From Candidatus Iainarchaeum sp. (GTDB taxonomy: Archaea; Iainarchaeota; Iainarchaeia; Iainarchaeales; 0-14-0-20-34-12), in NCBI GenBank assembly GCA_030649345.1, contig JAUSKK010000029.1:1-32000 (forward strand): DNA of 32,000 bases, in the 5' to 3' direction. Both the position numbers and the translations under genes were made by a program. Below, piece after piece: positions 7,871 through 26,794 of this stretch (positions are counted from its first letter, which is position 1; each line of letters starts with the position of its first letter). Under the pieces are notes generated by a model. That model was not told the DNA's origin and searched no databases. It saw only the letters and a list, made by a program, of their open reading frames with translations.

Positions 7871-7942
7871 ATACTGTCTGTTAGTATACTATAACTTATT
7901 TAGGAATCTTTTTAAAACAAATTGACCATAAATTCAAATAAT

Positions 7943-10101: not shown

Positions 10102-10950
10102 ATGGAATCTAAAGCAACACTTTTAATTTTACTAATTATTTTGGGAATCTTATTTGGATGCACGCAAAACAATTCACCAGCCATAATTTCCGATGATCAA
10201 AATCCAATAACTGAAACAAATCCAGACAATGGAACTTCTTCTGGAGTTTCAACCACTCAAGAAGTACCTGAAGATGTAGCTGAAGGCATTCAAATAATCA
10301 ATGAAGGACTGGAACGATCTCGCCAAGAAGAAAAAGTGGATTCAGCAGTTGCACTAAACATGAAGCAAGTACGTGAAGATTGCACTCAAGCCATTGACTT
10401 TACAGATGCAGTAGCTGAGGCTTGTGGCACTGGATTCAATAAATTAGAAGTAGACTTTGGAAATACGCCAGCAGAATATAGAGTATATGCAGGTGTCGAA
10501 ACCGAGAAGTTTTTAGGAAGCCATGCCTGCAGCGATCGTTTCCGAAACGATGATGTATTTAATTCACCATCCGCAGATCCAAATGCAATAAGGTCTTCAT
10601 CACCCATTGAAATTGGAATTGCAAAATTAACTTTACCAGGTCAAACAAAATCAGCTATTGAATACATTACGAATGACCCCAACAAATTCTATTATGGTGA
10701 AAACTTAGAAGTCATACACCAATTTAGCATAAGCAATAACTCATCTGCAGTGGTTTTAAAAGAAGAATTCGCCAGCGTTAGAAATAACCCAGGTACTATT
10801 CGCACCAATGTATTGGCAAATAAAGGATCTTACATCGTTCTAATTGCAGGAGAAAAATACGATCACTGCATTCAATCCGATACAGGAGAAAATGACATCA
10901 GCAAAATTGAATCCTTAACAAAAGCAATACTGGCAAAGTTACCGGAATAA
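10102..10950 (+). CDS. Secreted lipoprotein-like protein, unknown function
   Basis: ATG 10102 (MESKATLLILLIILGILFGCTQNN) gives a signal peptide with a lipobox-like L-F-G-C. An acidic Ser/Thr/Pro linker and a ~200-aa domain follow. The ORF-track start is TTG 10087. Confidence 0.6.
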   Translation: MESKATLLILLIILGILFGCTQNNSPAIISDDQNPITETNPDNGTSSGVSTTQEVPEDVAEGIQIINEGLERSRQEEKVDSAVALNMKQVREDCTQAIDFTDAVAEACGTGFNKLEVDFGNTPAEYRVYAGVETEKFLGSHACSDRFRNDDVFNSPSADPNAIRSSSPIEIGIAKLTLPGQTKSAIEYITNDPNKFYYGENLEVIHQFSISNNSSAVVLKEEFASVRNNPGTIRTNVLANKGSYIVLIAGEKYDHCIQSDTGENDISKIESLTKAILAKLPE

Positions 10951-11028: not shown

Positions 11029-11685
11029 TTATTTCTTAAAAATAACTCCGCCTATGTCTTCGGTTAATTCTAAATTTCGAAAACCCGCATTTTTTAATTT
11101 TGTTAAAACAGTTTTCTTTAAATTTTTTCCACGAACAATTCCAGTATTGCCGGTGTAGTGAAAGCCTTGGCCTTTGGATTTGAGAACTCGAAACATTTGG
11201 AAATAAAATTTTTCCGAAAACAATTCGCTTGCAATTTTAATGCTCGGAGGATCGTGAATAATAAAATCAAAAAAATTATCTGGAAATGTTTGGATTTCTT
11301 CAAAAATATTTCCTTGCTTGAATTCAATTTTAGAATTGGAAAACAATTCTTGAGAATGCTGATTTTGTTTTGCTAAAGCAATTACGTTTTCGTCTACTTC
11401 AAAAGAATGAATTTTTTGAACAGCTGGAATTTTAGATAAATGAGTACTGACATACCCTAAACCAGTACAAGTATCTAAAATTTTCCCAAAAGGTTTGCCC
11501 AGATAGGCCACCATTTGTTTTGTGCTTTTTTCCGGATCTGTGTCTTTAATGCAATGCATTCGAATTCCGGAAATTTCCAAATACGGCCAAGTCTGAGTTT
11601 CAACCAATTTGTAATATTTTTGAGTTTGCTCTGAAAAAAATCCAATCAAACGCTTGGGAGACTTATTATTCTTTTCTTTATTCAT
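11029..11685 (-). CDS. Class I SAM-dependent methyltransferase with (H)DPPS motif IV
   Basis: Motif I is ILDTCTGLGYVS and motif IV IIHDPPS, the DPP(Y/F/S) type seen in N-methyltransferases acting on nucleic acid or protein amino groups. 218 aa. Confidence 0.7.
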   Translation of the reverse strand: MNKEKNNKSPKRLIGFFSEQTQKYYKLVETQTWPYLEISGIRMHCIKDTDPEKSTKQMVAYLGKPFGKILDTCTGLGYVSTHLSKIPAVQKIHSFEVDENVIALAKQNQHSQELFSNSKIEFKQGNIFEEIQTFPDNFFDFIIHDPPSIKIASELFSEKFYFQMFRVLKSKGQGFHYTGNTGIVRGKNLKKTVLTKLKNAGFRNLELTEDIGGVIFKK

Positions 11686-11692: not shown

Positions 11693-11702
11693 CTATATAT
11701 AG
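11693..11702 (+). promoter_or_regulatory. TATA-box candidate (CTATATATAG) for the giant-protein locus
   Basis: It lies ~47 nt upstream of GTG 11749 in the 63-bp divergent spacer. A purine-rich TGAGAGTGA lies 5 nt before the start codon. This is a sequence-pattern call only. Confidence 0.3.
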
Positions 11703-11748
11703 GAGAAACTCTAAAAAGTATACGAAAGGATAGCTTGAGAGTGAATTT

Positions 11749-14700
11749 GTGAATAAATTTGAAAAAATTATTTTTATCAGCGTACTTTTAATTCTTTTAA
11801 CTTTTTCAGTAAATGCTGGAACTGCAAATTATATTTCAACTATTTCGTGTGTTGGCGGACAAGAATCTCAGTGTTATTCTTCAACAGCAATTGGTTCAAC
11901 TGATTGTAGTGGAGATGGTTGTTCAACTGTTTGTAAAGATGGAACTTATAAATATGGTCCAGGAACAGCCGGAGGTTCAGGCTGGATGGATTGTGTAAAC
12001 AGCAGTGGTCAACCAGTTGCTGATGGAGCTACTGGATTGTGTGCTTGGGAAAGTATTGGAAGCTGTGCACAAGACGGACAAGTATTCAATACTTCTTCAA
12101 CAGGATATTGTTCTTCTGGCTGGGGTTGTGTCTATGATCAAACAGTTACATTAAGCAATACTTGCCAAGATGGGTATACTGCAACCAGTTCATGCACTTA
12201 CAAAAAAAGAGTTTCATCTGCTTATCCAAATCAAACAACGTGTACACCAGCAACGCCCAGTTGTGCAGGTCATGAATGTTCTTCAACTAATTTAAGTTTG
12301 TGTACCAGTGAAAGTACTTGTGAAACTACAGGATCAGCCAATTGGTGTCAAACAGGATATACATCATACACTTGTCAAACAGCAGCTTGTGCAACTTGTA
12401 GTTCAAGTAATTTAAGTGCATGCTATACCAATAGTGCGTGCACCAATGCAAGCGGATATTGGAATACTACAACCAACACATGCAGTGCTCAAACGCAAAG
12501 CAGTTGTACTTCAAGCGGAAAATATTGGTGTCCAAATGCTACAGGAACCAATGAATGTCAATCTACAACTTGTACTACAAGTACATGCACGGCCAGTACT
12601 CCACAGCATTGCAGTACAACAACCAATTGCTCAAATGTAGGTGCTGTTTGGTGTGAGTCAACTCATTTATGTTATGCTTCAGGATCACAACCTTCTAATT
12701 GCAGTTCTGGAGAATGTTCAACTACCAGTGTTACCCCTTGTGTCAGCCAAGGAGATTGTACAAGTGTAGGCGGAATATGGTGTTCTGCAACCAATAATTG
12801 TAAAACCACTCAAGCTGAATGCACTCAATCTATTTCTTGTGTTCCAGGAAGTAGTCCAGCTTGTACCACAAGTGCTGAATGTTCAACTGCTTCAGGATAT
12901 TGGTGTTCTACCTACAATCAGTGTTATATTAATTCCAGTGGCTGTCCAAGTGCAGGCAGTTGTGATACTAGCAATCGATATGCTTGCACAAGTTCCAGTA
13001 CCTGCAATACAGCTGGCGGAACATGGTGCAGCATAGAAAGCACTTGTTTTAATCCAAATGAAAATTATTGTTGTTCTAATACCAACTTAACTGGTTGTGA
13101 AACAGTAGATAGATGTACTCAAATTGGCGCAGGATATTGGTGTGCCAGAAATAATACTTGTGTTAGTAGTTCCAGTCAATGTACAAATACTTCAACATGC
13201 TCTTCTTCAGATTATTATCAATGCAATGATTCAACAGGATGTTCTAGTATTGGTGGAACTTGGTGTCCAACTACGGCAACCACAGTAGCGTATTGTAGTT
13301 CTCCTGGTCAATCCTGTACTACAATTGGAATGTGTGGAAATAGTTCATGCAATGTAGGAGAAACAGCAGGTACTTGCCCAAACGATTGCAATGAAAATAC
13401 ATCAAATTATTGTTCTGTTAATAATCCAGGTGGATGCAAAGAACCAGGTACTTGTACAAGCATAGGTGGAACCTGGTGTCCTCAAACCAACACAGCTCCT
13501 GCAGGATGCGCCCCTCCTGGAATAACGTGTCAGCAAGGCCAGACTTTTTGCGGAAATTATGTTTGTGAAACTGGAGAAACTCAGTATTCTTGTTCTACAG
13601 ATTGTGGAAACCCTAAAGAACTTGTTTGCCCGCCAAAAGACAAAATAGAATATGAAAAAAAGTCCTGTACAGCCAATAAAGGAATTGGAAAAATTTACAT
13701 GGCACCGGATGGATGCGAATATTTTTCATGTGATTATTCTACGCGAACCACTTGTCCAACTGGCGATGATGAACGAAAAGCAATTGATTCTTGTAAAAAC
13801 GATGGACAAGATTGGGTTTTCAATTATTATGGAAATTGTAAATTTGTAGAATGTTTACATAAAACAGTTTGTGCCAGCAAAGAAGATTTGAAAGCCACTC
13901 AAAAGAAATGTGAGAGTTTAGGTTTAGGATATTATTATTCAAGTGATTATCAAGGCTGCCCCAATATTCAATGTAAGCAGCAAGATTTCAAAGTTGTTCC
14001 TCCAACACCTGCTCAATGCAGAACAGAATACGATGCCTATTCAGGATATAGATATGTATGTGATACAACTCAAAATACTTGCCCTAGTTTAGATAGTCAA
14101 GCAGACTCTAAACGGAAATGTTATGATAGCGGCGGAAGACCTGATATTGTAAAAGGGCCCTCTGGTTGTGAATATTATACGTGTAACTTTGGAGAAGACA
14201 ATTCGTATTTCTTTGATTATCAAGGATGTCCTTCAGGAGAAGAATTACAAAAAACAGTGAATCAATGCAATGAAGAAGGAAAAGAAGTATTTACAGAAAT
14301 TGGATTAAATGGTTGTAAGAATGCAAAATGTGTAGAGCCAGGAACAGTTGAACAAAAAACAGAAGATGCTTGTATAGGATTACCCATTGAAAAATATAAA
14401 GAACAAAAAAGCGCTTGTGAAAATCAAGACGGAATATTTGTAGAAAAATGCAGTGCCTATGAATGTATTTCTAAAAGCGATATTGGAAAATGTGAAAGCA
14501 TTGAACCTGAAAAAGCAGTGTATGAAAAATGCGCAGCTAAAGGCGGAGAATTAATTGTTCGAAGAGATGACAATAAATGTCCTGTATTTATTGAATGTGT
14601 TGGGCGAAATGAAGTAGCTGAATTTGAAGATACAGAAGTCACTGACACGATTGGAGCAGCTCAAGCTTTAGAAATTGTATTTAATTTAGAAAAACTAAAT

Positions 14701-15399
14701 TTAATTTTAGATAAATTAGAACGACAAACTGAAGAATTAAAAACATATTATGAAAGCGTTGGAAATACAGAAAATGTTGAAAGATTTGTCCGAGTAAAAG
14801 CTATGTTTCAGGCAGCCCAGCAAGAAGTTGAATCCATTAAACAATATTTGGCAGACAATGCAGATAATTTAACGATTGAAAATTTAAAAGACATTAAAAC
14901 AAAAGTCAAATATATCAAAAAAGGAGTATTGAAAGATATTTTATATGTCATGCTGGCCAAAGAACCTAAACCAGCAACCAGCACAGGAACAGATATTAAA
15001 AATTGTGAAGAAAGTGAACAATGTTTTGTCAGCAATTTAAGAGTTTGCCAGAAAGCATTTATGGAACATACTGAAGTTGGATTTTCTGGGAAAATTGAAA
15101 TTACAGGATTGGAAGAAAACAAATGCAATGTAAAAGCTGCTGCAAATTATCAAGGAGAAAGTTATGAAATGGGCTGTGCATTTGACAATTATCCATTTGC
15201 TGATTTGAACCCGGAAAGCATGCAAAAATATTGTTCTGGCACATTAATTGAAAAAATGAAAAAAGAAGGAATTCGGACAGAGCAACCTACTAGCCCAGAA
15301 TCAACTGCAGCAAGTACTACGGATGAAAAAAAAGACATTAATGATCCATTAACAGGAGAACCATTGGTAAATCCAGCAGACAACAGTGAGGGAATTTAA
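11749..15399 (+). CDS. Giant secreted cysteine-rich repeat protein (1216 aa), no membrane anchor
   Basis: A GTG start gives the signal peptide MNKFEKIIFISVLLILLTFSVNA. By hand count there are 114 Cys. About 9 Ser/Thr-rich repeats end in G-(G/A)-x-W-C, and two CGN-x2-C-x2-GE-x4-C-x2-DC modules are present. Seven ~45-aa four-Cys repeats follow, then a Cys-free coiled-coil-like stretch and a 6-Cys C-terminal domain. There are many N-x-S/T sequons. Confidence 0.85.
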   Translation: MNKFEKIIFISVLLILLTFSVNAGTANYISTISCVGGQESQCYSSTAIGSTDCSGDGCSTVCKDGTYKYGPGTAGGSGWMDCVNSSGQPVADGATGLCAWESIGSCAQDGQVFNTSSTGYCSSGWGCVYDQTVTLSNTCQDGYTATSSCTYKKRVSSAYPNQTTCTPATPSCAGHECSSTNLSLCTSESTCETTGSANWCQTGYTSYTCQTAACATCSSSNLSACYTNSACTNASGYWNTTTNTCSAQTQSSCTSSGKYWCPNATGTNECQSTTCTTSTCTASTPQHCSTTTNCSNVGAVWCESTHLCYASGSQPSNCSSGECSTTSVTPCVSQGDCTSVGGIWCSATNNCKTTQAECTQSISCVPGSSPACTTSAECSTASGYWCSTYNQCYINSSGCPSAGSCDTSNRYACTSSSTCNTAGGTWCSIESTCFNPNENYCCSNTNLTGCETVDRCTQIGAGYWCARNNTCVSSSSQCTNTSTCSSSDYYQCNDSTGCSSIGGTWCPTTATTVAYCSSPGQSCTTIGMCGNSSCNVGETAGTCPNDCNENTSNYCSVNNPGGCKEPGTCTSIGGTWCPQTNTAPAGCAPPGITCQQGQTFCGNYVCETGETQYSCSTDCGNPKELVCPPKDKIEYEKKSCTANKGIGKIYMAPDGCEYFSCDYSTRTTCPTGDDERKAIDSCKNDGQDWVFNYYGNCKFVECLHKTVCASKEDLKATQKKCESLGLGYYYSSDYQGCPNIQCKQQDFKVVPPTPAQCRTEYDAYSGYRYVCDTTQNTCPSLDSQADSKRKCYDSGGRPDIVKGPSGCEYYTCNFGEDNSYFFDYQGCPSGEELQKTVNQCNEEGKEVFTEIGLNGCKNAKCVEPGTVEQKTEDACIGLPIEKYKEQKSACENQDGIFVEKCSAYECISKSDIGKCESIEPEKAVYEKCAAKGGELIVRRDDNKCPVFIECVGRNEVAEFEDTEVTDTIGAAQALEIVFNLEKLNLILDKLERQTEELKTYYESVGNTENVERFVRVKAMFQAAQQEVESIKQYLADNADNLTIENLKDIKTKVKYIKKGVLKDILYVMLAKEPKPATSTGTDIKNCEESEQCFVSNLRVCQKAFMEHTEVGFSGKIEITGLEENKCNVKAAANYQGESYEMGCAFDNYPFADLNPESMQKYCSGTLIEKMKKEGIRTEQPTSPESTAASTTDEKKDINDPLTGEPLVNPADNSEGI

Positions 15400-15695
15400 T
15401 GACTGAAAAAGAAACTAAATCCAAAGAAGGAATTTTAGACAAAAAAATGAATCTAAGCTTTAGCATGAGCCATATTATTATTGCAGTTTTATTATTGGCA
15501 GTTATTTCATTGGCTTATGTTTTAATAACAAATCCCAATGCATTCAAGCAAAGCTTGGAGCGAACAGCTTTAGAAAATGAAACTGTTAATCCTGTAACCA
15601 CAGAACAAGAAGCCAGCCAAGCCATTACAGGAATTGGACAAGACATTAAAGGATTAAGTTCTACTTTAGATGAAATTGATCAAAGCTTGGGTTAA
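15399..15695 (+). CDS. Small single-pass membrane protein (98 aa), translationally coupled to the giant gene
   Basis: Its ATG shares one nucleotide with the upstream TAA (TAATG at 15397-15401). It has a basic N-terminus, one TM helix (IIIAVLLLAVISLAYVLI) and a ~55-aa acidic tail. Confidence 0.6.
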   Translation: MTEKETKSKEGILDKKMNLSFSMSHIIIAVLLLAVISLAYVLITNPNAFKQSLERTALENETVNPVTTEQEASQAITGIGQDIKGLSSTLDEIDQSLG

Positions 15696-15738
15696 GTAAA
15701 GTCAATGTATTTATAATAGAAAATACTTGAGTACTAGA

Positions 15739-18627
15739 ATGAAAAAGTTAATCTTATTTTTTTTAATTCTATTAGCTTTGCCTGCTTTCTCAGTTTATGA
15801 AATTGTAAATCAAACATGCACCAGCACACAACAAGGAAGTTTTACACAGGCTAATTTGTTATTGGAAACTTCAGACAGTTATTTTTTAACCTCTGATAAA
15901 AATGTATACCAGGCTCCAAAAATAGCAATAGGTACTTGGACTTTGAAAGGAAGTATTCCGTATCGAATTACTCAATTGGTAAATGATCCTGCTACAAATA
16001 CTTTGTATGCCGCTGGAACTCCTGCCAATGATGGCTGGAATTTTTATACCTACAAGTCAGTAGACCAAGGGGTTACTTGGACGCTAGTCGGCACGCCGAT
16101 TAATAGTTTGAATTATTTTTTATTTTACAGAGTAAATTCATTAAATGCCAGTAATGGATTCAACAAAATTTATTCCTTAGCCGGAGTCCCTCTTCAATGG
16201 TATGAGATTGCCAGCTTGGAAGAAGGAACACAAATTCGGGCAATTACATCCGGCAATTTTCAAGAGCATGCAGTAGGCTACAAGAATAATATTGGAACTT
16301 TGTATTCAGGACCATTTCTTAACCAGTTAACAGCCCGCGGTTCTTTGCCGGAAAATGAACAGCCTTGGGGTGATGCTTTGGGATTTTATGATGGAAACTT
16401 GTTTATGATTACCCAAAACAATGAAGGAAAAGGTTCTGTTTTTAGGTCAATGAATTCAGGAAATACTTGGGAAAAAGTATTCACGCAAGACATGGCTTTC
16501 ACTGAAATTGCCGGAAAACCTGAAACTGGAATAAATGTTTTGGCAAGCAATGGAAATATTTTTAGATCCTGGAATGGAACCACATGGATTAGTTTGGGAA
16601 CTTCTGGATTTTCTCCCATGGGTGAATTGTTATCTCCGGAAGCGGGAAATTATTTATTGGCAGTCATTACTGGAAGATTGAATCAAGTAATATGCAATGC
16701 TTGGCCTATGTTGAAAGTAAAACAAAAAAATATTTCCGCAGCACCTGGAGCTACAGTAACTTTGGATGTTTCAGATTCTACAGATTTAGAAAATCATACA
16801 ATTCAATACACTTGGAATTTTTCTAGCGGACCCCTAGGAGCGCCAGCGCCTGTTTTGAATAATTCAGCCACAGCAATTGCAACTGCAATTATGCCTAACC
16901 AAACTGGAGAATATTTTTTTGAAATTAGATTAAAAGACAACGGAAGTCCAGCAATTCTGCCAGCCCAAGGCAGTGCAGATTTAATTACAGTTACAGTTCA
17001 AGAAAATCAAGCTCCAACAGCAAATGCGGGCCCAGATATTCAATGCACAATAAATCAAAATTGCACAGTGCAAGGAATTGGAACAGATCCAGAAAATCAG
17101 TCTTTAGAATATAATTGGAATTTGGCACTGAATTCACCTCAAGGCCCAATTCAAACTGTCGGAGCAGAAGATCAAACAAATTATACTTTTACCGCAGCTC
17201 AAATTGGGACTTATATTTTAACTTTTGCAGTTACAGATAATGCCAATCAAACTGCAAAAGATCAAGTAACGATCACAATGGTTTCAGATCAAGTCAATCA
17301 CGCGCCCATAGTAAATGCTGGACCTGATGTACTTTGTGTAATTAATGAAGAGTGTACTTTAGTTGGACAAGCCAGTGATCCAGATAATGATGAATTAAAT
17401 TATTTCTGGACACCGGAAGTTATGCCAGGCAATGCCATCCCAGCACAACCACCCATTAGTCTTACTTTAGTGTTTACAGCAAACACAATTGGAAATTATA
17501 CATTTAAATTAACTGCACAAGATCGAGAAGATTTAGATGACCCGAACTTATTGGAAGCCAGTGATACAGTTAATGTAATCATGTTTGCCAGTCAAGAAGA
17601 ATTAGAAGCAGCCAATCAAGTGCCTATAGCGAATGCAGGAGTCAATCAAATTGTACACACAGGAGAAATTGTTCAATTAAATGGAAATCAAAGTTCAGAT
17701 CCAGAAGGACAAACAATAAATTATGCTTGGACTCAAGTCAGCGGACCTTTAATTACAATTCAAAACGGAAATCAAATGCTTGCAAATTTTACTCCAACTC
17801 AAATTGGAACTTATGTGTTTCGATTAAGTGTTACAGATTCTTTGGAAGCCAGTGCCAATGATGATATTAGTATTCAGGTATTGGAACAAATTTCTGGAAC
17901 ACAAACAGTCTGCGGAAACAATGTATGTGAAGAAGGAGAAAATGTTGTCAGCTGTGCGTTTGATTGTGAAATTAATTCAAGCGGAGAAAGACCAGGATTT
18001 AGTGTTCCTTTTGCGCGCGCAGGAAGAGATCAAAATGTAGAAGAAGGAGATTTTGTGATATTGGATGGAAGTACAAGCTCAGATGCAGATGAACAAGCAC
18101 TGGCTTTTGAATGGGAACAAACCAGCGGAGAAACTGTAGCCATTATTAATGCAGATCGAAGTAAAGCAATTTTTGTAGCAGGAGAAACAGGAACAGAATA
18201 TGAATTCAAATTAACAGTCACAGACGAATCCGAAAATACTGCAACTGATTTAGTTAAAGTCAAAGTAGAAACTGTGACAGCTCGAAGAACTACCGGCAGC
18301 GGACAAAACCCAACAGATACTACAGTAAATGCAGGAAACACTTTAGGAAATACATGCAGTGGAACTGTGTGTTTAGGATTTTGTTATTCAGGACAAGGAA
18401 TATGCTGTACAGACGGCTGGCATTCGAATACTGAAACATGTCAAGAGTCTGGAGCACTTCCAATTGGAAACAATGTTGATTTTAATTTAGGAACTGGAGG
18501 AATGCCTGATTTTCTAAGCTCTCCGATTTTTTTAATATTAACTGCAGTTTCAATTTTAGGCGGAATTATTGCATGGTTCTTGAAATTTAGAAAAAAAGAA
18601 CCCTATCAAAAAAAGCAAGCTATTTAA
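15739..18627 (+). CDS. Giant surface protein: signal peptide, BNR/Asp-box beta-propeller-like domain, 4-5 PKD-like Ig repeats, CGN module, C-terminal TM anchor
   Basis: ATG 15739 (MKKLILFFLILLALPAFS); the ORF track uses TTG 15727. Asp-box matches (S-x-D-x-G-x-T-W type) are KSVDQGVTWT and RSMNSGNTWE. The repeated ~95-aa units begin N(Q/H)(A/V)P(T/I)(A/V)NAGPD... with ...DP(E/D)... (Y/F)xW. VCGNNVCEEGENVVSCAFDC is present, and the C-terminus is IFLILTAVSILGGIIAWFLKFRKK. Confidence 0.85.
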   Translation: MKKLILFFLILLALPAFSVYEIVNQTCTSTQQGSFTQANLLLETSDSYFLTSDKNVYQAPKIAIGTWTLKGSIPYRITQLVNDPATNTLYAAGTPANDGWNFYTYKSVDQGVTWTLVGTPINSLNYFLFYRVNSLNASNGFNKIYSLAGVPLQWYEIASLEEGTQIRAITSGNFQEHAVGYKNNIGTLYSGPFLNQLTARGSLPENEQPWGDALGFYDGNLFMITQNNEGKGSVFRSMNSGNTWEKVFTQDMAFTEIAGKPETGINVLASNGNIFRSWNGTTWISLGTSGFSPMGELLSPEAGNYLLAVITGRLNQVICNAWPMLKVKQKNISAAPGATVTLDVSDSTDLENHTIQYTWNFSSGPLGAPAPVLNNSATAIATAIMPNQTGEYFFEIRLKDNGSPAILPAQGSADLITVTVQENQAPTANAGPDIQCTINQNCTVQGIGTDPENQSLEYNWNLALNSPQGPIQTVGAEDQTNYTFTAAQIGTYILTFAVTDNANQTAKDQVTITMVSDQVNHAPIVNAGPDVLCVINEECTLVGQASDPDNDELNYFWTPEVMPGNAIPAQPPISLTLVFTANTIGNYTFKLTAQDREDLDDPNLLEASDTVNVIMFASQEELEAANQVPIANAGVNQIVHTGEIVQLNGNQSSDPEGQTINYAWTQVSGPLITIQNGNQMLANFTPTQIGTYVFRLSVTDSLEASANDDISIQVLEQISGTQTVCGNNVCEEGENVVSCAFDCEINSSGERPGFSVPFARAGRDQNVEEGDFVILDGSTSSDADEQALAFEWEQTSGETVAIINADRSKAIFVAGETGTEYEFKLTVTDESENTATDLVKVKVETVTARRTTGSGQNPTDTTVNAGNTLGNTCSGTVCLGFCYSGQGICCTDGWHSNTETCQESGALPIGNNVDFNLGTGGMPDFLSSPIFLILTAVSILGGIIAWFLKFRKKEPYQKKQAI

Positions 18628-18650
18628 ACAATAAAGTTCTCTTTGTATAA

Positions 18651-21600
18651 ATGAATTCAAACAAAATTTTGCTTTTTTTAGTCTTAATTTTTTCAATCCA
18701 AACAGTTCAAGCTCAATGGACTGAAACCACACCTTTGCCTTTAACTGGAATGACAATTGGAAGAGATATCACACGAGCCAGTGATGGCACTTTGTATGTT
18801 GGAGGAGACGGCATTCGTGTTTATAGTGCCAACAGCAATGGAACTTCTTGGACAGATACTAGCGTACTTGGAACAGTTGCATTTAATGCATTGGCCGCCG
18901 GTGATTCTGGAAACATCTATGCATTAACTGGAACAGCAGCAGGAAGTGGGATTCATAGATACAATGGAACAACTTGGACAACGCTTAAAACATTTGACAA
19001 TATTTCCAGTGCCAATGACATAGTCTACGTTGGAAACAATACATTGTATTTTTCTTATTTTAATGATGTAAATCGTTCAACGGACGGTGGAGTGAACTGG
19101 GCTTCAACTGGGTTGGTTACAGCATTGGGTGGAAGTGCTTCATCGTATTCAGTGCAAGATTTAGATTACGATGAAACTGGAGCAATATATGCTGTAGTGC
19201 AAAGATTTGCTCCAACTCAAGCTGAAGTTTGGAGATACAATGGAACAACTTGGACACAAGTAGCTGCTCTGTTAAATTATTCTTCTTCAAGAATTTTGGC
19301 TCACAAAGAAGGTTCTGCACCAACTCAAGTTTTTATTAATAATAATACAATTTTACTCAAAGGAAGTGGTGATGGCGCATTAACTTTCAGTGAAATAAAA
19401 ACATTTACAAACTCAGTTCAAAAAATTTACAGATTAAGTGATGGAAAAATTACAGTTTTAGAAGGAGTTAAAGTATGGCGTTCAGCCAATGCAGATTCAG
19501 ATATTATTGCTGGAGCAACATTTAATGATTTGGGAAATGTTCGAAGTACAGGAACTGCTGGTGGAATAACCCAATCCGCCAACGGAAATTTATATGTTCT
19601 GGCCTATTGGCTGGGCGCAGGAGGAAGCAGTAATTTTGAATCCGGTGTTTATTATTTTGGGTCAGCACCGCCACCCAGCCAAGTTTGTGGAAATGGAACT
19701 ATTGAAAGTCCAGAAGTATGTGATGGAGCTAATTTAAATTCTCAAACTTGTTCCAGTCAAGGTTTTGCTTCTGGAACTCTGGCATGTAATGCCAATTGTT
19801 TAGGATTTAATACTTCTTCATGTGTTTCAAATCCTGTTTGTGGAAATAGTGTATGTGATGCTGGAGAAACCAGTGTAAATTGCTCCATGGATTGTGGCCC
19901 AGCTTCAACAACACCCAAAGCTTGCTGTACCAATCAAGATTGTAGTACTAGCCAAATTTGCAATCCCAGCAATCAAAGATGTGAAACAAAAACTGGAACT
20001 TCTTGTACCAGCAGAGCCAATTGTCCTGCAGGCCAAAGTTGTGTTTCTGGAATTTGTGGAAACAGTACTTCAACAGATCCAAACCGAACAGGACAAGGAA
20101 CCAATTGTAATGGAAATAATGGAATTTGCCCAATTGGATATTATTGTTCTCCTGTAACTGACACTTGTGTTCCAGGAGCAGTATGTTCAACATCATCTAC
20201 AGACATGAATAATCATACGTGTCCGCAAACTTGTGCAACTGTAACAGAACAAGGATACAGTACTACATCTACAACTTGTTTATCACAATCTTGTATTCCG
20301 ACTTTTTCAACTCAAAACATTCCGAATGGACCAGTTCAATGTTGTGGAATCAATTGTCAAACTGGACAAATTTGCGGAAGTAATGGAACTTGTCAAAACA
20401 GACAAAGATGTTCTTTACCAGCAGACTTTATTGGAGGAACTGGAAGCACAACAGGACCTTCATGCGCAACAGATACAACTTGCGCAACAGGATATAGTTG
20501 TCAAACTGGATTTTGTAGATTAGCACCTGATTGCCCAACAGGAAATACTTGCGGACAAGACAGATATTGTGCGCCTTCAAGTGCTCCAGTTTGTCCTGGA
20601 TCACAAGAGTGTGAAAGTCCATGTCAAAGATACGATACTGGGTTAGGTCAATGTGTGCAAGATAATTCTTTGCCTACTTGTTCACCTGGAGAAATTCAAT
20701 GTTGTTCAGACAGTCAATGTGGTTCAACGCAAGTATGTGTTCCAGATGGAAGTTCTACTGGAATTTGTCAAGAAAGAACTACTTTAACAGCATGTGAAAG
20801 TCAATCCAGTTACCAAGAAATAACATGTACCACCAATGCAGATTGTGCAGGACATGGAATAAATCCAATTTGTAATACTGCAAACAATAAATGTTATAAT
20901 AAAACAGGAACAACTTGCAGTCCAGGAGATACAACAAGAGGTTGTAGTCCGAATACAGAATGTTTAGAAAATTATTGTTCAACCCCAAGTCTAGAAATGG
21001 TACCAACACAAGGTTCTTGTGCACCTGGAACAACTTGTGCAACCTCAGGTCCAAATCAAAATTTATGTGTTCCTTCTGGAACAATTTGCCCCAGTTCAGG
21101 AAATACTTGCCCAATTCCAGAAACTCCAATCAACAATGTATGTTTTACCTGCCAAGGAGAAAATTGTACAATTACTGACAGTATTGAATGTCCTACAACA
21201 GGACAAACACAAGCAGGAAGTATTTGCAATACAGACACAGATTGTTCATATTACGAAAGTTGTAATATTCAAACCAATGTTTGCCAAACTTTAGCATGCA
21301 CAGGCACAGAAGTACCAGTCAATCACCGGTGTATTCCTGGCAGTGATTTTTGCCAAGATGCAACACTCAGAGAATTGGAAAGAATTATTGAAACCAATAC
21401 AACCAATAGTGAAGTAACCAGTTTACTGGAACGATTGCAGACAGAAATAGCTGCAGGAAATATAGGACAAGCACAGAATACTTTGCAAAAAATTATTGAA
21501 AAATTACCTGGAACTCAAGGAACAGATACCATTACTTTATTGCGGGAAGCCAGAACACAATTGGAAGCAGGAAATGCAGGACAAGCTCAAGCCATTTTAC

Positions 21601-21740
21601 AAAGAGCAGCCCAGCAAAGCGGAGTGGTTAGCTCAGAACAATTTTCCAACCAGCAGCAAATCCAAAATGTATTGTACGGAATCATCGGAGTTCTGACTGC
21701 AGTTATTGGAGCATTGGCCTTCTTGTATTACAAAAAATAA
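18651..21740 (+). CDS. Giant surface protein: signal peptide, BNR/Asp-box propeller-like domain, ~540-aa cysteine-rich stalk, helical repeat, C-terminal TM anchor
   Basis: Signal peptide MNSNKILLFLVLIFSIQTVQA. Propeller blades are marked by NRSTDGGVNWAST, NSNGTSWTD and RYNGTTWT (twice). VCGNGTIESPEVCDG... and VCGNSVCDAGETSVNCSMDC are present, followed by dense C-x3-(D/Q)-C-x4-6-C-x5-8-C units. The duplicated helices are EIAAGNIGQAQNTLQKI and QLEAGNAGQAQAILQRA, and the C-terminal anchor is LYGIIGVLTAVIGALAFLYYKK. Confidence 0.85.
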   Translation: MNSNKILLFLVLIFSIQTVQAQWTETTPLPLTGMTIGRDITRASDGTLYVGGDGIRVYSANSNGTSWTDTSVLGTVAFNALAAGDSGNIYALTGTAAGSGIHRYNGTTWTTLKTFDNISSANDIVYVGNNTLYFSYFNDVNRSTDGGVNWASTGLVTALGGSASSYSVQDLDYDETGAIYAVVQRFAPTQAEVWRYNGTTWTQVAALLNYSSSRILAHKEGSAPTQVFINNNTILLKGSGDGALTFSEIKTFTNSVQKIYRLSDGKITVLEGVKVWRSANADSDIIAGATFNDLGNVRSTGTAGGITQSANGNLYVLAYWLGAGGSSNFESGVYYFGSAPPPSQVCGNGTIESPEVCDGANLNSQTCSSQGFASGTLACNANCLGFNTSSCVSNPVCGNSVCDAGETSVNCSMDCGPASTTPKACCTNQDCSTSQICNPSNQRCETKTGTSCTSRANCPAGQSCVSGICGNSTSTDPNRTGQGTNCNGNNGICPIGYYCSPVTDTCVPGAVCSTSSTDMNNHTCPQTCATVTEQGYSTTSTTCLSQSCIPTFSTQNIPNGPVQCCGINCQTGQICGSNGTCQNRQRCSLPADFIGGTGSTTGPSCATDTTCATGYSCQTGFCRLAPDCPTGNTCGQDRYCAPSSAPVCPGSQECESPCQRYDTGLGQCVQDNSLPTCSPGEIQCCSDSQCGSTQVCVPDGSSTGICQERTTLTACESQSSYQEITCTTNADCAGHGINPICNTANNKCYNKTGTTCSPGDTTRGCSPNTECLENYCSTPSLEMVPTQGSCAPGTTCATSGPNQNLCVPSGTICPSSGNTCPIPETPINNVCFTCQGENCTITDSIECPTTGQTQAGSICNTDTDCSYYESCNIQTNVCQTLACTGTEVPVNHRCIPGSDFCQDATLRELERIIETNTTNSEVTSLLERLQTEIAAGNIGQAQNTLQKIIEKLPGTQGTDTITLLREARTQLEAGNAGQAQAILQRAAQQSGVVSSEQFSNQQQIQNVLYGIIGVLTAVIGALAFLYYKK

Positions 21741-21750
21741 TTCCAGCATT

Positions 21751-22374
21751 ATGCCTAATTCTAATTTAGAAAAATATGCTTATGGAATTTTAACTAGAAA
21801 TAATTCCCTGCGGGAATACGAATTTTTTTTATCCAACATCAGCTCAGAACTTTCATTGCAAGAACTGATAAAAGAATTTTTAAAAACCAGAAAAAAAGTA
21901 CGATTACTGGATTTAGGTTCTGGAGAAGGACAGGCTTTAAAAGAATTAAAAAATTTATTCAAAAATCAAATTGAAACTATTGGAATGGATTTATTGAATA
22001 GCCCAAAAGAAAATTTTGATCGGTTTATTTTAGGAAATATTTTGGAAAAAGAATTTCCAAAAGAATGCGATATTATTTTAGGCTTCCGTTCACTGCATGA
22101 AATAGGAAATATTGAAAAAAATTTGGAAAAAATCTCTCAAGCACTAAAAATTGGCGGCTTGGCTTTTTTATCCATACGCATCCAAGACTCGCACAATGGA
22201 GTTATGCAATGGATTGGAAAAATAATTGAACAGGATTTAAAATTTTTGCAAAAAATCATTCAACAAAAAGAATGGAAAAATATGAAAATTCAAGGATATA
22301 CAGTAAATGTAAAACTAGAAACTGCAGAAAGCATTACCAGTGGAGTGAACTTGATTTTGGTTCGAGTGCAATAA
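21751..22374 (+). CDS. Class I SAM-dependent methyltransferase (small, substrate unknown)
   Basis: ATG 21751 lies 10 nt after the stop of the giant gene; the ORF-track start 21706 overlaps that gene. Motif I is VRLLDLGSGEGQALKEL. The acidic post-beta2 residue is in IGMDLL, and GGLAFLSI marks the motif-IV/V region. Confidence 0.65.
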   Translation: MPNSNLEKYAYGILTRNNSLREYEFFLSNISSELSLQELIKEFLKTRKKVRLLDLGSGEGQALKELKNLFKNQIETIGMDLLNSPKENFDRFILGNILEKEFPKECDIILGFRSLHEIGNIEKNLEKISQALKIGGLAFLSIRIQDSHNGVMQWIGKIIEQDLKFLQKIIQQKEWKNMKIQGYTVNVKLETAESITSGVNLILVRVQ

Positions 22375-22423: not shown

Positions 22424-23596
22424 ATGGGCAAAATATACGATGTGGCAGTCATTGGAGCTGGACCAGCTGGAGCCAGTGCAGCCAAAAACAGTGCACAATT
22501 AGGACTGGAAACTATATTATTGGAAGAACATACAAGCATCGGAGAACCCGTGCATTGCGGAGAATGCTTATCTGAGTACGCTACACAAAATATTGGAATC
22601 AAATTGCCTAAAGAAGTAATTTCTTTAGATGTAAAAGGAGTTAAAGTAATTTTTCCAGATGGAACAGATCGAAATGTTTCCGAACCAGGCTATGTTTTAG
22701 AAAAACACCTATTTGAACAATGGCTAGCTAGTGAAGCTGAAAAATTGGGAGCATATATTTCTTTGGATTCCAAAGTTACTGAATTAGAACGCAGGCAAGG
22801 ATTATGGAATTTAAAAGCCAAAGACAAAGAAATTCAAGCCAAAATTGTAATTGATGCTTCTGGAGTGCAGGCAGTTACTTCTCGTTTTTTGGGAATCAAT
22901 CAACGTTTCCAAAGTGTGGTGGGAATGCAGTATGAAATGCAGGAAGTAGAAACCACAGGATATTTAGATTTTTATTTATGGCCAGAATTAGCACCCGAAG
23001 GATATTTATGGGTAATTCCAAAATGCAATCAAAGAAGCAATGTAGGTTTAGTAACCACACAAATGAATAAAGCCAAAACATATCTGGATCAATTCACAAA
23101 ACGAATTGGGGTAGATGGAAAAAAGATTAATAAAACATTTGGCGGAATGATTCCAGCCTCAGGTCCTTTGAAAAATACGTTTGCGGAAGGATTAATGTTG
23201 GTTGGAGATGCCGCAGGATTCACCAGCCCTTTGTTTGAAGGAGGAACTCAGTTGTCTTTAAAGTCCGGACAATTTGCAGCTCAAGTAGCCAAACAAGCTG
23301 TTGAAAAAAATGATTTAAGTGCAGAACAATTAAGCCAGTATAAAAAATTGTGGTTTCCTGAATTTCCGAATTATGAAAAATTAATTGACGGCAGAGAAAA
23401 ATTGTATAAATTTTCAGATGTTGAATTGAGTCAAATGGCAAAAATCATGCCTATGGAATTAGGAACTTTAAGTTTTTTCCAAAAAATAAATGTTGGATTC
23501 AATGTTTTAATCAAGCATCCGCATTTTTTTAAGAAAGGATTTATGCCGGCTATGCAAGCATTTGAATATTCTAGAGCTAAATTTTACGGCTGGTAG
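22424..23596 (+). CDS. Geranylgeranyl reductase family FAD-dependent oxidoreductase (archaeal lipid/isoprenoid saturation)
   Basis: The Rossmann FAD motif YDVAVIGAGPAGASAAK, the conserved PVHCGE Cys motif and the GDAAGF motif are present. The 390-aa size is typical. An AGGAGAT RBS lies 5 nt upstream. Confidence 0.85.
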   Translation: MGKIYDVAVIGAGPAGASAAKNSAQLGLETILLEEHTSIGEPVHCGECLSEYATQNIGIKLPKEVISLDVKGVKVIFPDGTDRNVSEPGYVLEKHLFEQWLASEAEKLGAYISLDSKVTELERRQGLWNLKAKDKEIQAKIVIDASGVQAVTSRFLGINQRFQSVVGMQYEMQEVETTGYLDFYLWPELAPEGYLWVIPKCNQRSNVGLVTTQMNKAKTYLDQFTKRIGVDGKKINKTFGGMIPASGPLKNTFAEGLMLVGDAAGFTSPLFEGGTQLSLKSGQFAAQVAKQAVEKNDLSAEQLSQYKKLWFPEFPNYEKLIDGREKLYKFSDVELSQMAKIMPMELGTLSFFQKINVGFNVLIKHPHFFKKGFMPAMQAFEYSRAKFYGW

Positions 23597-24191
23597 TAAG
23601 GCAATTTTGAATAAGTGTTTTATAATCTAATTTTTTTTCTTCCGATTCAATTACAGATAAAATTGCTTGCGTATTGGGATGCTTGCTTCCTAAAATATCA
23701 CAGCTTTCCGGGCCAATCGAAATTTCGTAGGTGCCGATTTTTTTTGCAATCTGAATAATTTCTTCTTTATCTAAAGCCAAAACAGGACGAAGCAAAGGAA
23801 TATGAATCGCGGATTGGATTACGGACAAATTGGCTAAAGTTTGACTGCTGACTTGCCCTAAACTTTCGCCAGTCACTAAAAAAGAACAATTTTCTTTTTC
23901 AGCTAAATATTCTGAAGTTTTCAACATAAAGCGTTTCATTAAAACAAAGTATAAACCATGCGCACATTGTTTGGCTAATTCTTCAAAAGCTGGACTGGCA
24001 TTCAAAACAATTAATTTTGAAAAAGTTAATTTTTCGCAGACATCTTTGCATTTGTCTTCAGGGTTTCTTCCAATAAATTTGCTGGCAAAATGAACTGCAA
24101 TAATTTCAAAATTTTGCTGTTGAGCTAAAAAACCTGCAACTGGGCTGTCAATGCCTCCAGATAAAAGCAACAAAACGCGTATTTTAGGCAT
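23577..24191 (-). CDS. thiI: ThiI-like PP-loop ATP pyrophosphatase domain (tRNA 4-thiouridine / sulfur transfer), lacking THUMP and rhodanese domains
   Basis: The PP-loop is LLLSGGIDSPVAG and the ThiI-specific motif TGESLGQVSSQTLANL is present. At 204 aa it covers only the adenylation domain. Its 3' end overlaps the convergent reductase gene by 20 nt. Confidence 0.8.
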   Translation of the reverse strand: MPKIRVLLLLSGGIDSPVAGFLAQQQNFEIIAVHFASKFIGRNPEDKCKDVCEKLTFSKLIVLNASPAFEELAKQCAHGLYFVLMKRFMLKTSEYLAEKENCSFLVTGESLGQVSSQTLANLSVIQSAIHIPLLRPVLALDKEEIIQIAKKIGTYEISIGPESCDILGSKHPNTQAILSVIESEEKKLDYKTLIQNCLTTSRKI

Positions 24192-24313: not shown

Positions 24314-26794
24314 ATGACGCATAACCAAAAATTCTTAATTAGTTTAGCTATTTTAGTAGTTTTGTTTTCTTTGACTGCTTTGGCTCAAGATCAACCACCT
24401 GTAGAAGGAGGAGATACACCACCAACAGATCAAGGACCACCGCCAACAGATCAACCACCAATTGAGGATCATCCACTGGAAGGCGGAGAACAACCACCTG
24501 CAGATCAACAAAGACCACCTGAAGGACAGAATCCTGAAGGAGACCCTAATTACAGACCACCAGAAGGACAAGGGCCTTATCCAGGACAAGATGGACAACA
24601 ACCTCCATTTGATCAAGGAAGACAACCTGAAGGACAAAATTTTCAAAGACCAACTACAGGCCCAGGTAACTGTCAAGGACAAGAACAATGCCAATTATAT
24701 TGTGGAGTACACCCAGAGGAATGCCAACAATGGGCTGGCCAACAAGGAGTTCAAAGACAAGGCCCAATGAATGGAGGCCAAGGCTATGGATCTGAAAGAA
24801 GATCCGGCGGAATTGGTGGACCTCAATGTGGAACACCCGAAGAATGTAGAGGTTTAGCTCAAGAATTTGGTGTTGCAAATAGTATTGGAGTACGAACAGG
24901 ACCTAGCGGATGCACCAGTGAAGAAGAATGTAAAAAAATATTTGATGAAAACCCACAAGAAGTTAGGCAATGGGCTCAACAAAATGGAATGATTGAACAC
25001 AAGGGACAATTTATTGAAGCACGCGCCGGACCCGGCGGATGTTCAAGTCCAGAAGAATGTATGACTTATTGTAGAGAAAATCCAGAATCCTGTGATCAAT
25101 TTGCTGGAAGAAGAGGACAAGGATTTGAACAAGCATTTAATAAAATTGAACAAAGAGATCAACGAAAAGAAATGCAACAAGAGCGCAGAAAAGAAATGCG
25201 ATTTGAAGGAATTCCACGCGAAATAATTGAAGCTGGAGCAGAAACAGAATTTGTTCAAATGATGGCAGCCATGGCTAAATTCAGAACCCAGCGATTGCTA
25301 ACTGAATTGGATAAAATGGAAGAACGCATTTCATTGGCTGGAACAGAATTAGGAATCCAAATCGATGGAAGCAAATTTTCAGAAATGAAAACAAAAATTG
25401 AAACTGCATTAAATGATTTAGGAAATGTAACCAATGCAGAAGAAGCCAATGCAAAAATGAAAGCTTTCTTTGAAATCATGGAAGGACCCAATGGAGTTCA
25501 AGGAGTATTTGAAAACTTTGGACAACAAATGCAAGAAAAAGTACAAGTATTGTTTGATGAAAAATTCAAACGAATGCAAACATTGCAAGAACAAATGAAA
25601 AACAAAGAACAAGAATGTAGAACTGCTGGAGACCAAATGAGACAACAACAAGAACAAAATATGCAGCAGCAAAGACAACAACAAGATGAACAGTTTAGAA
25701 CTCAGGATGAAGAAAGAAGAAGACAATACGAAGAACAAATGAGAAATCAACAAGGACAATACCCTCAAGGCGGAGATCCAAATTATAGACCACCAGAAGG
25801 ACAAGGACCTTACCCAGGCGATGGTGGACAGTACCCTCAAGGAGGAAGTTATCCTGAAGGAAGCATGCCACCAGAAGGCGGAGATTATCAGCCACCTCCA
25901 GAACAACCACCAGCCAGCAATGCAACTGCTCAACCAATTGTAATACAATTGCAAGAATTTCCAGGACCTCAAGGACCTGGCCCCAATGATTTCGGCGGAG
26001 GCTTTCCAGACGGACCCATGAACGGCGGTCCTTATGACAGCGGACAAGGATTTGGCGGACCTCAAGGACCCGGCGGATTTGGAGATGGAGAAATGCCAGC
26101 AGCTTGTCAAGAAATGCAAACACTTGGAACTGAAATGCAAGCTATTGGAGAAGAAATGAAAGCTTTAGGAGAAAAAGTACAAGGCGTATTTGGAAAACCT
26201 GAAGACCATGAGCAAGACTTTGAAGAAGAGCCTTTGCCTCCTGAATTAATTGAACAGCAAGCGCAATTGTTCATCAAAGTATTTGATTTCAAATTCAATG
26301 GAATCAAACAAAAACGAGATGAAATTGCAGGCCAAGGATTCGATGTAAAAGAATTCGATGAATTAATTGCATGGATTATTTCCAGAAAAGAAGAAGGACT
26401 CAGAATTATTCGTTCTGGAGATGAAGAAAAAATGGATGAATTCTTCAATAGCATGGGAGATTCTCAATTTGACTGGGAAGATAGAATCCGAGATTCTATT
26501 GCACGACAACAATTGGAAAAACAAATTTCCAAAGTTGAAGAATTTTTACCCAAAGCCCAAGAAGCCATTAATGCAGGAAAAGAACGAGGTTTAGATACCA
26601 GTGACTTGGAAGAAATTTACGGGGAATTGAAAGGATTGGTTGAAAATGCACGTGCACAATTAAGCCAAGGAAAAGAAATTTCTCTGCAAGATTTCAGACT
26701 ACAATTACGAGAAGTGTATCTGAATTTCCGAGAAGAATGGGTTAGCTTACGAGAAGAAGCTGCAAGAACAGGATTAATTGTACTGGCAAGGTGA
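24314..26794 (+). CDS. Secreted Pro/Gln/Gly-rich coiled-coil protein with four CxxxEEC-type motifs (826 aa), unknown function
   Basis: Signal peptide MTHNQKFLISLAILVVLFSLTALA. There are low-complexity P/Q/G/E tracts. Four related Cys motifs are present: GNCQGQEQCQLYCGVHPEECQQWA, PQCGTPEECRGLA, SGCTSEEECKKIFDENPQEVRQWA and GGCSSPEECMTYCRENPESCDQFA. Long Glu/Gln/Lys/Met-rich helical stretches follow, and there is no C-terminal anchor. Confidence 0.8.
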   Translation: MTHNQKFLISLAILVVLFSLTALAQDQPPVEGGDTPPTDQGPPPTDQPPIEDHPLEGGEQPPADQQRPPEGQNPEGDPNYRPPEGQGPYPGQDGQQPPFDQGRQPEGQNFQRPTTGPGNCQGQEQCQLYCGVHPEECQQWAGQQGVQRQGPMNGGQGYGSERRSGGIGGPQCGTPEECRGLAQEFGVANSIGVRTGPSGCTSEEECKKIFDENPQEVRQWAQQNGMIEHKGQFIEARAGPGGCSSPEECMTYCRENPESCDQFAGRRGQGFEQAFNKIEQRDQRKEMQQERRKEMRFEGIPREIIEAGAETEFVQMMAAMAKFRTQRLLTELDKMEERISLAGTELGIQIDGSKFSEMKTKIETALNDLGNVTNAEEANAKMKAFFEIMEGPNGVQGVFENFGQQMQEKVQVLFDEKFKRMQTLQEQMKNKEQECRTAGDQMRQQQEQNMQQQRQQQDEQFRTQDEERRRQYEEQMRNQQGQYPQGGDPNYRPPEGQGPYPGDGGQYPQGGSYPEGSMPPEGGDYQPPPEQPPASNATAQPIVIQLQEFPGPQGPGPNDFGGGFPDGPMNGGPYDSGQGFGGPQGPGGFGDGEMPAACQEMQTLGTEMQAIGEEMKALGEKVQGVFGKPEDHEQDFEEEPLPPELIEQQAQLFIKVFDFKFNGIKQKRDEIAGQGFDVKEFDELIAWIISRKEEGLRIIRSGDEEKMDEFFNSMGDSQFDWEDRIRDSIARQQLEKQISKVEEFLPKAQEAINAGKERGLDTSDLEEIYGELKGLVENARAQLSQGKEISLQDFRLQLREVYLNFREEWVSLREEAARTGLIVLAR

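Follow-up and report, generated by a model that had tools for sequence, protein, structure and literature searches.

Do five closely spaced genes, three of which encode giant secreted proteins, specify one surface apparatus or several unrelated products? The question is raised by a locus of Candidatus Iainarchaeum sp. (assembly GCA_030649345.1, contig JAUSKK010000029.1, positions 1 to 32,000 of the forward strand; this whole stretch of 32,000 nucleotides (nt) is the window referred to below). An earlier note on this DNA had read the five genes, here called P1, P2, P3, P4 and the methyltransferase gene, as an operon-like locus for a candidate cell-attachment apparatus. Our analysis indicates that the interesting part is narrower than this: a DPANN-wide, unnamed two-gene cassette (P1-P2) stands amid two lineage-specific adhesin-type giants (P3 and P4), and the locus is a surface-protein island that falls into three or more separate units rather than forming a single apparatus. 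The genes, whose products are given in amino acids (aa), are as follows.

11749..15399, plus strand: P1, 1216 aa, GTG start (open reading frame (ORF) map and re-translation)
15399..15695, plus strand: P2, 98 aa; its ATG overlaps the P1 stop by 1 nt (TAATG)
15739..18627, plus strand: P3, 962 aa from the ATG; 43-nt gap after P2
18651..21740, plus strand: P4, 1029 aa; 23-nt gap after P3
21751..22374, plus strand: methyltransferase, 207 aa, class-I, S-adenosylmethionine-dependent; 10-nt gap after P4

P1 and P2 form a conserved cassette

P1 and P2 make up a conserved two-gene cassette across DPANN archaea. We examined 20 cassettes: that of the window, 13 at loci from GTDB species genomes (searched with a six-sequence core alignment) and six at five loci retrieved by exact look-up. 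A contig end truncates one of them. In each of the other 19 a P2 homologue of 60-103 aa lies directly downstream of the P1-family gene, the gap being -4 to +78 nt in 18 cassettes and 262 nt in one. A P2 hidden Markov model (HMM) run over the ~260 kb of these loci matched these downstream positions only, and it recovered four P2s outside its training set (E 1e-15 to 2e-6). The window has exactly one match to each model (core HMM, 380 bits; P2 HMM, E 1.6e-20), and its pair shows the combination by which we define the cassette: an anchor-less P1 whose core matches the profile of alignment A2, followed downstream by an anchored protein with an L-x-D-I-D-x-x-L-G helix.

P2 of the window has a basic N-terminus, a transmembrane (TM) segment in its N-terminal part (residues ~25-45) and a C-terminal heptad helix (residues ~66-98) that ends in STLDEIDQSLG; it has no cysteine and no lipobox, and matches no Pfam or NCBIfam family. 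The manner of anchoring varies among relatives: 14 of the 19 bear a lipobox-like [hydrophobic]-x-[GS]-C and five, the window included, an uncleaved hydrophobic helix. The C-terminal block of ~33 residues has the consensus IKSQEEASEAVTNISTDVENVSSTLDDIDKDLG; its hydrophobic positions are spaced 4-3-4-3-4-3-4, as in a heptad pattern, and it carries a D-x-D motif with near-invariant Asp residues. Pairwise divergences of P1 cores and P2 helices are correlated (Mantel r 0.76, with none of 5000 permutations as high), which shows joint inheritance of the two genes; contact between their products is not thereby proven. Pfam, NCBIfam, PADLOC and full-text literature searches yielded no description of the P1-core/P2 pair.

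It is of note that one Woesearchaeota contig (L019, GCA_016185565.1; 1471-1917, 4177-6509 and 8627-12330) carries two P1-P2 cassettes, convergent in arrangement and divergent from each other, with a lipobox on both P2 copies and a Peptidase_A8 (signal peptidase II-like) gene nearby. In the window itself, a 287-aa protein (10087-10950, plus strand) has the lipobox-like signal LGILFGC, so lipobox proteins exist in this genome although its P2 uses a TM helix.

The P1 core family

The part of P1 by which its family is recognised lies near the C-terminus.

14002..15288, plus strand: P1 conserved core, residues 752-1180, made up of the last type-B repeats, a helix bundle and a 6-Cys domain
14656-14955, plus strand: three-helix bundle of the core, residues 970-1069
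15004-15240, plus strand: 6-Cys alpha/beta domain of the core, residues 1086-1164

A word-index search with full-length P1 returned three proteins and one with core alignment A2 returned none. The family becomes visible only by exhaustive phmmer of the C-terminal half: residues 600-1216 matched 271 cluster representatives at E<=1e-3, 128 of them at E<=1e-30, and nearly all align to residues ~752-1180. Where the source is named it is Aenigmarchaeota, Woesearchaeota, Diapherotrites or plain 'archaeon', with one member binned as a Levybacteria bacterium. P1 had no Pfam, NCBIfam or PDB-sequence match. Pfam models recognised the core in none of the 27 members scanned, whose variable N-termini contain occasional Kazal domains. 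Members range from 450 to 1560 aa, and in none of 32 does a TM-like segment occur apart from the signal peptide.

An AlphaFold2 (AF2) model of P1 residues 911-1171 with five homologues reached a mean predicted local distance difference test score (pLDDT) of 78.9 and a predicted template modelling score (pTM) of 0.72. It predicts long helices at residues 970-1003, 1007-1036 and 1043-1069, a last type-B repeat folded as a helix plus beta-hairpin, and a compact domain of a helix and four strands that bears the six conserved Cys. Foldseek gave no match to this model at E<=0.001 in the PDB (best E 0.5) or BFVD. The invariant residues K1054, Y1055, K1057, K1062 and D1063 fall in helix 3, as the motif KYIKxxxxKD.

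At another locus (L012) a 1924-aa ORF (14940-20711, plus strand), ~3.6 kb downstream of the P1-P2 cassette, matches the core profile weakly (E 4.6e-6) and may be a distant P1 paralogue.

A tether model for P2

What might P2 do for P1? The core is always present, the P1 family is never self-anchored and an anchored helix mini-protein is always next to it, so the simplest model is that P2 is the tether of P1. By analogy with SlaA/SlaB, we think it on balance probable that P2 holds secreted P1 at the membrane by helix docking. P1 would be exported via its signal peptide and would fold into a disulfide-rich modular stalk, the variable N-terminal Cys repeats projecting outward and the C-terminal core (three-helix bundle plus 6-Cys alpha/beta domain) forming the membrane-proximal end. 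P2, held in the membrane by a TM helix here and presumably by a lipobox cysteine in most relatives, would expose a ~26-residue heptad helix with the conserved Asp residues. That helix would dock on the Lys/Arg-rich helical bundle of P1 and so provide a non-covalent tether to the cell surface. The invariant lysines of P1 helix 3 appear to complement the conserved Asp residues of P2 in charge. We infer a physical interaction between P1 and P2 and a membrane-proximal orientation of the core. On this model the cassette would be a surface protein held non-covalently by an anchor that another gene encodes; the logic is known, the pair newly described.

Two other genes of the window may bear on the folding of such proteins. 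One encodes a membrane-anchored thioredoxin-like protein (1152-1664, plus strand), in which a TM segment is followed by YGAYWCEYC, and the other a Redoxin/AhpC-type protein (7922-8536, plus strand). Judged by sequence, both are candidate handlers of disulfides outside the cytoplasm, as would befit an exoproteome in which Cys accounts for 7-9%.

One operon or several units?

The earlier note proposed to test whether the four-gene order recurs in related DPANN genomes. At the loci examined, only P1-P2 does. No phmmer homologue of P3, P4, the methyltransferase or the downstream reductase was found within +-10 kb of 15 other P1-family loci, and in the gene tables of three further loci (L018-L020) the small partner is followed, reading in the pair's direction, by no large gene. 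The methyltransferase likewise shows no conserved linkage to surface genes at the P1-family loci searched. In the closest relative (L004), whose P1 is 43% identical over the C-terminal half, upstream synteny is kept and P1-P2 is followed by a convergent 4HBT thioesterase gene. The four- or five-gene operon or apparatus that had been proposed is therefore not borne out, and the small membrane partner stands in part: it is genuine for P1 (19 of 19 cassettes) but specific to P1-P2, not shared with the other giants.

Upstream of the pair, a 140-aa ORF of the window (9475-9897, plus strand) has a clear homologue in L004 (517-954), separated there by 45 nt from the P1 homologue downstream. The corresponding interval of the window, between this ORF and P1, holds two further genes, one for a lipoprotein and one, on the minus strand (11029-11685), for a methyltransferase.

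Are P3 and P4 nevertheless transcribed with P1-P2? The following candidate signals were read from the sequence.

11694..11744, plus strand: putative P1-P2 promoter/ribosome-binding region
11694-11701, plus strand: TATATATA, about -50 of P1, candidate promoter element
11737-11744, plus strand: GAGAGTGA, resembling a Shine-Dalgarno (SD) sequence, upstream of P1
15710..15716, plus strand: TATA-like TTTATAA, starting at -29 from the P3 ATG; candidate promoter of a leaderless P3 transcript
18623..18628, plus strand: TATA-like TTTAAA within the 3' end of P3, its first base at -28 relative to the P4 ATG; candidate P4 promoter

An SD-like GTGAGGG for P2 lies inside the 3' end of P1 and, together with the TAATG overlap, makes it probable that translation of P1 and P2 is coupled. 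P3 and P4 are preceded by no SD sequence. Positions -28 and -29 are those expected of a TATA element in leaderless archaeal transcripts, and the TATA-like hexamers found there, with SD sequences lacking, indicate that P3 and P4 probably have their own promoters. A TATA-like hexamer starts at -34..-24 in five of the 23 window genes (ORF 413, P3, P4, ThiI (23577-24191) and P6), as against 3.7% of random positions, which suggests leaderless transcription for a subset of window genes. At least three transcription units are likely.

Cysteine modules of P1 and their distribution

P1 contains 114 Cys (9.4%), has a signal-like N-terminus (residues 1-23) and is without a membrane anchor. From N- to C-terminus it consists of the signal peptide, a Cys-rich N-terminal region, type-A repeats, CGN modules, type-B repeats, a long helical region, the 6-Cys C-terminal domain and an acidic tail.

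12277..13548, plus strand: type-A Cys repeats of P1, residues 177-600; C-x7-C-x5-C-x7/8-C, at least nine copies
P1 residues 529-547 (within the type-A region) and 601-619 (nt 13549-13605), plus strand: CGN modules, CGN-x2-C-x3-E-x4-C-x2-DC, 19 aa
13627..14598, plus strand: type-B Cys repeats of P1, residues 627-950; ~45 aa, C-x12-C-x14/15-C-x4/5-C
P3 residues 725-743 and P4 residues 397-415: the other copies of the CGN module

The consensus of the type-A repeat in P1 is CSSxxxxxCxxxxxCxxxGGxWC; such repeats also occur in one Aenigmarchaeota protein and in one bacterial DUF5667 protein. Type-B copies number six by strict regular expression and seven to eight by Cys spacing, and the repeat is modelled by AF2 as described above. 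The Cys-repeat regions contain no DNA-level tandem repeats, arguing against recent repeat expansion and for old repeats. The 19-aa module, more generally CG[ND]-x2-C-x3-E-x3-6-C-x2-DC, is the only element common to P1, P3 and P4. It is matched by no Pfam model and is present in 15 of 32 P1-family members in one to 13 copies each (13 in P0058).

Some family members end differently. The C-termini of P0039, P0040, P0048, P0049 and P0050 read NP[LFMW]xG, then a short hydrophobic stretch and WR[KD], an ending that resembles an NPxTG-type sorting motif. The tail of P1 (residues ~1199-1210) holds DPLTGEPLVNP, without the hydrophobic and WR parts.

Another gene of the window is also related to this family by a module.

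24314..26794, plus strand: P6, 826 aa, secreted, Pro-rich at the N-terminus and with long coiled coils

A strict pattern finds two GPGxC-x4-EC-x2-YC modules in P6; by eye there are about four. In five of 32 P1-family members (e.g. P0002, P0054 and P0060) modules of this type are fused C-terminal to the core, so in this genome they seemingly form a separate gene, P6, 9 kb downstream.

P3 and P4 are lineage-specific

P3 begins with a signal peptide and a beta-rich N-terminal domain (residues 20-335), continues with a PKD array (residues ~335-850) and, in its C-terminal part, has the CGN module, a short Cys knot, a TM segment (residues ~925-950) and the basic tail RKKEPYQKKQAI. The PKD domains are bona fide: five stretches match K319L-like PKD and PKD_4 (PF22352 and PF18911) with 213.9 bits against a gathering cut-off of 27. 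Such domains are typically found in surface and adhesion proteins of archaea and bacteria. The combination of the N-terminal beta-rich domain, CGN module, Cys knot and TM segment had no full-length counterpart in the searches made.

P4 starts with a signal peptide and a propeller-like domain of six to seven blades (residues 22-340; ~45-aa blades, read by eye). A DUF4215-like Cys repeat (residues 346-391, VCGNGTIESPEVCDG...) and the CGN module follow, and then a Cys-rich stalk of ~500 aa, reaching to residue ~900, of C-x4/5-C-x5-C-x5/6-C units. At the end are a helical TPR-like segment (residues 903-990), a TM segment (residues ~1007-1027) and KK. Cys makes up 7.4% of P4. The DUF4215-like repeat and the CGN module are the only parts of P4 with database homology in the word-index search, which found no full-length relative among 5.8 billion proteins. 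Residues 346-391 are 40-70% identical to Myxococcota repeats of DUF4215 (PF13948 / TIGR02232), and their best homologues carry PF13948. P4 differs from DUF4215 proteins in having a single copy and an unrelated remainder, and hmmscan lists no PF13948 at E<=0.1.

Are the N-terminal domains Asp-box propellers of the BNR (sialidase/sortilin) type, as the earlier note had it for these proteins? The claim is reasonably supported only in P4, which has one canonical Asp-box (STDGGVNW), the repeated blades read by eye and matches to the PDB designer propellers Cake and Bagel (E 4e-8 to 1e-4); an NCBIfam BNR-like model (F510_1955) also matches at E 7e-8, though its 32 bits fall far short of the cut-off of 175. 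In P3, which has one canonical box (SVDQGVTW) and one degenerate, the matches are sub-threshold only (BNR_3, E 0.022 and 14.6 bits against a cut-off of 27; BNR, E 1.8; tests of PF02012 and PF13859). Like P3, P4 scores below threshold with all BNR models. A single-sequence AF2 model of the P3 domain was unusable (pLDDT 32), and the domain is a possible Asp-box propeller as judged from its motifs. Comparison of the P3 and P4 N-terminal domains by hhalign gave a probability of 0.5%, so homology between them is not shown.

Neither protein has close relatives in a JGI metagenome scan. Their C-termini read ...MPDFLSSPIFLIL... (P3) and ...NVLYGIIGVL... (P4), with TM segment and basic tail present. 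A PGF-CTERM/archaeosortase sorting signal was considered for both and rejected: no NCBIfam sorting-signal model matched at E<=0.1 and there is no PGF. P3 and P4 are thus lineage-specific adhesin-type proteins that anchor themselves by a C-terminal TM segment; P3 is an ordinary PKD surface protein and P4 an orphan with a probable propeller and a Cys stalk.

The locus and its host

Much else in the earlier note's description holds. The ORFs and their junctions (-1, 43, 23 and 10 nt) were reproduced exactly by the ORF map and re-translation; an alternative TTG start would lengthen P3 to 966 aa. Re-translation also gave the hydrophobic signal-like segments claimed for the N-termini of P1, P3 and P4, the C-terminal TM segments and basic tails of P3 and P4, the lack of a second hydrophobic segment in P1 and the one TM segment of P2. 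Pfam agreed on the trailing methyltransferase (Methyltransf_23, E 5e-10) and on the PKD repeats (five K319L-like domains in P3, E 2e-64), and of Cys repeats, for which at least three kinds had been counted, at least four module types are present. The giants are, as described, extracytoplasmic, modular and adhesin-type, and no giant fits a named family beyond generic modules. The 'many' N-x-S/T sequons that were also reported do not stand out: 18, 17 and 18 are observed in the three giants against 17.0, 13.9 and 18.0 expected from composition. At this level sequons carry no signal, and enrichment of glycosylation sites was ruled out.

The guess that the DNA is from a DPANN archaeon was right, as follows from the identity of P1 with an NCBI hypothetical protein (Q7S92_03735) of a Candidatus Diapherotrites metagenome-assembled genome and from the archaeal housekeeping genes nearby. 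These encode a split RNA polymerase subunit B, ThiI, CorA, ZIP and an RsmB-like methyltransferase; a geranylgeranyl-reductase-like flavoprotein is also among the neighbours. One 488-aa ORF (28673-30139, plus strand) has only Rpb2 domains 1-3; it is the N-terminal portion of an RNA polymerase subunit B that is split, as in some archaea. GC content is 32-42%. The window contains no tRNA genes, and a PADLOC scan gave nothing meaningful.

Comparison with known systems

In Sulfolobales, SlaA and SlaB form a two-component S-layer, of which SlaB (475 aa) has three beta-sandwich domains and a C-terminal TM segment (PMC10903991; PMC6911244). P1-P2 is similar in that a large anchor-less secreted protein is encoded beside a membrane-anchored holder and in that the anchoring part has a coiled-coil element. 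Unlike SlaB, however, P2 has 60-103 aa, an N-terminal TM segment or lipobox and one helix, and P1 is a Cys-repeat stalk where SlaA is a beta-rich lattice protein; lattice formation by P1 is not indicated. Because homology is lacking and the partner architecture differs, P1-P2 does not belong to the SlaA/SlaB family. The S-layers of DPANN archaea, Aenigmatarchaeota included, have been assigned to MSTP-like beta-sandwich proteins (bioRxiv 10.1101/2024.05.28.596244). The model of the P1 core, with its helical bundle and small alpha/beta domain, differs from these, and Pfam found no MSTP-type (DUF1608-like) domain in P1, P3, P4 or P6.

Archaeal lipoproteins with a lipobox, [L/V/I]-[A/S/T/V/I]-[G/A/S]-C at the signal peptide end, are handled by the AliA/AliB pathway, and AliA has been reported in DPANN (PMC12462473). 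The 14 P2-family proteins with [LVIMF]-x-[GS]-C after a hydrophobic segment resemble them and are putatively lipidated, whereas P2 of the window, lacking cysteine, would keep its TM helix. P1 also has partial counterparts in DUF5667 proteins of candidate phyla radiation (CPR) bacteria (e.g. P0003), which share its type-A repeats, CGN modules and ~45-aa four-Cys repeats. These proteins have an N-terminal TM segment and the DUF5667 helical domain in place of the C-terminal core. DUF5667 (PF18915) has no match in P1; only the bacterial relative P0003 carries it.

Weighing the explanations

Several points count against the tether model and the division of the locus. The Mantel correlation is also expected from co-inheritance alone. 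The 19 cassettes in which adjacency was seen are a sample from a family with several hundred members, and most of them come from Aenigmarchaeota. The AF2 core model was built from six sequences only. Extracellular disulfides are assumed, in a habitat that is apparently anoxic. That P1 functions in adhesion, by binding another cell or a ligand, is supposition. The promoter and SD calls, finally, were made by eye in an AT-rich genome.

How do other explanations compare? That all five genes are one co-transcribed operon for a single host-attachment or surface-layer apparatus, with P2 as the common membrane partner, would fit their common strand, the spacers of -1 to 43 nt, the extracytoplasmic location of all three giants, each with the 19-aa CGN module, and the lack of obvious intrinsic terminators between the genes. 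It seems unlikely in view of the other P1-P2 loci: none of the 15 searched has P3, P4 or the methyltransferase, L018-L020 have no comparable large gene, and L004, the nearest relative, keeps the pair and the upstream synteny and has an unrelated convergent gene thereafter. In addition, P3 and P4 have no close relatives elsewhere in the searches made, and their TATA-like boxes occupy a position that is enriched at gene starts in the window. An S-layer would likewise explain an anchor-less large secreted protein with an adjacent membrane-anchored partner, as in SlaA/SlaB (PMC10903991), P1 forming the outer lattice and P2 the membrane stalk, and a conserved core with a variable outer part, in a family widespread in DPANN, also fits. 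We nevertheless rated this identity for P1 as unlikely, since the S-layers of DPANN are given to MSTP-like proteins by a structural survey (bioRxiv 10.1101/2024.05.28.596244). Two divergent cassettes share one Woesearchaeota contig, lattice proteins are not typically so rich in Cys or so variable in length (450-1560 aa), P2 is without the beta-sandwich domains of SlaB, and neither Pfam nor Foldseek showed sequence or fold similarity to known S-layer proteins.

Alternatively, P1 could be released, for example as an effector or toxin, with P2 its export or folding factor, regulator or immunity-type partner. Toxin-immunity and effector-chaperone pairs, too, typically couple a large and polymorphic secreted protein strictly with a small one in the membrane, and there are weak helical-hairpin matches (ESAT-6-like, E 0.073; WXG100, E 0.0028 in one member). 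However, the variable part of P1 is N-terminal and built of structural Cys repeats, in which neither a toxin nor an enzyme domain can be recognised, the conserved part is a C-terminal core, which is the opposite of polymorphic toxins, the conserved P2 element is extracytoplasmic and a plain coiled-coil helix, and no defence or toxin model matches. We regard this explanation as rather improbable. Could the pairing be mere annotation noise, P2 being a chance ORF amid unrelated hypothetical surface genes? P2 is indeed short and outside any Pfam or NCBIfam family, but its profile matches 19 of 19 adjacent positions and nowhere else, and an anchor plus heptad helix is kept across phylum-level distances, so that we give this idea hardly any credence. 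The tethering of P1 by P2 remains the model that we favour.

Implications

DPANN archaea are, to our knowledge, mostly uncultured, and how their cell exterior is built and how they contact their hosts are largely unknown. P1-P2 is easy to recognise in their genomes, as an anchor-less giant Cys-rich protein followed by an anchored helix of 60-100 aa. Present in several DPANN phyla, without a Pfam or NCBIfam model and without a match to a solved fold, it is a candidate lineage-wide surface module. It offers a defined interaction (P1 core with P2 helix), a target for antibodies, tags or cryo-electron tomography, and a marker for comparative genomics. A bolder reading, which we put forward as speculative and rather doubtful, is that P1-P2 is the principal DPANN-specific cell-contact device, that its tethered, disulfide-stabilised stalk bears rapidly diversifying N-terminal Cys modules that decide to which host cell or surface the nano-sized archaeon attaches, and that P3 and P4 are strain-specific accessory adhesins that joined the island. 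If this is true, the cassette would be a marker of, and a handle on, host specificity in Aenigmarchaeota, Woesearchaeota and Diapherotrites.

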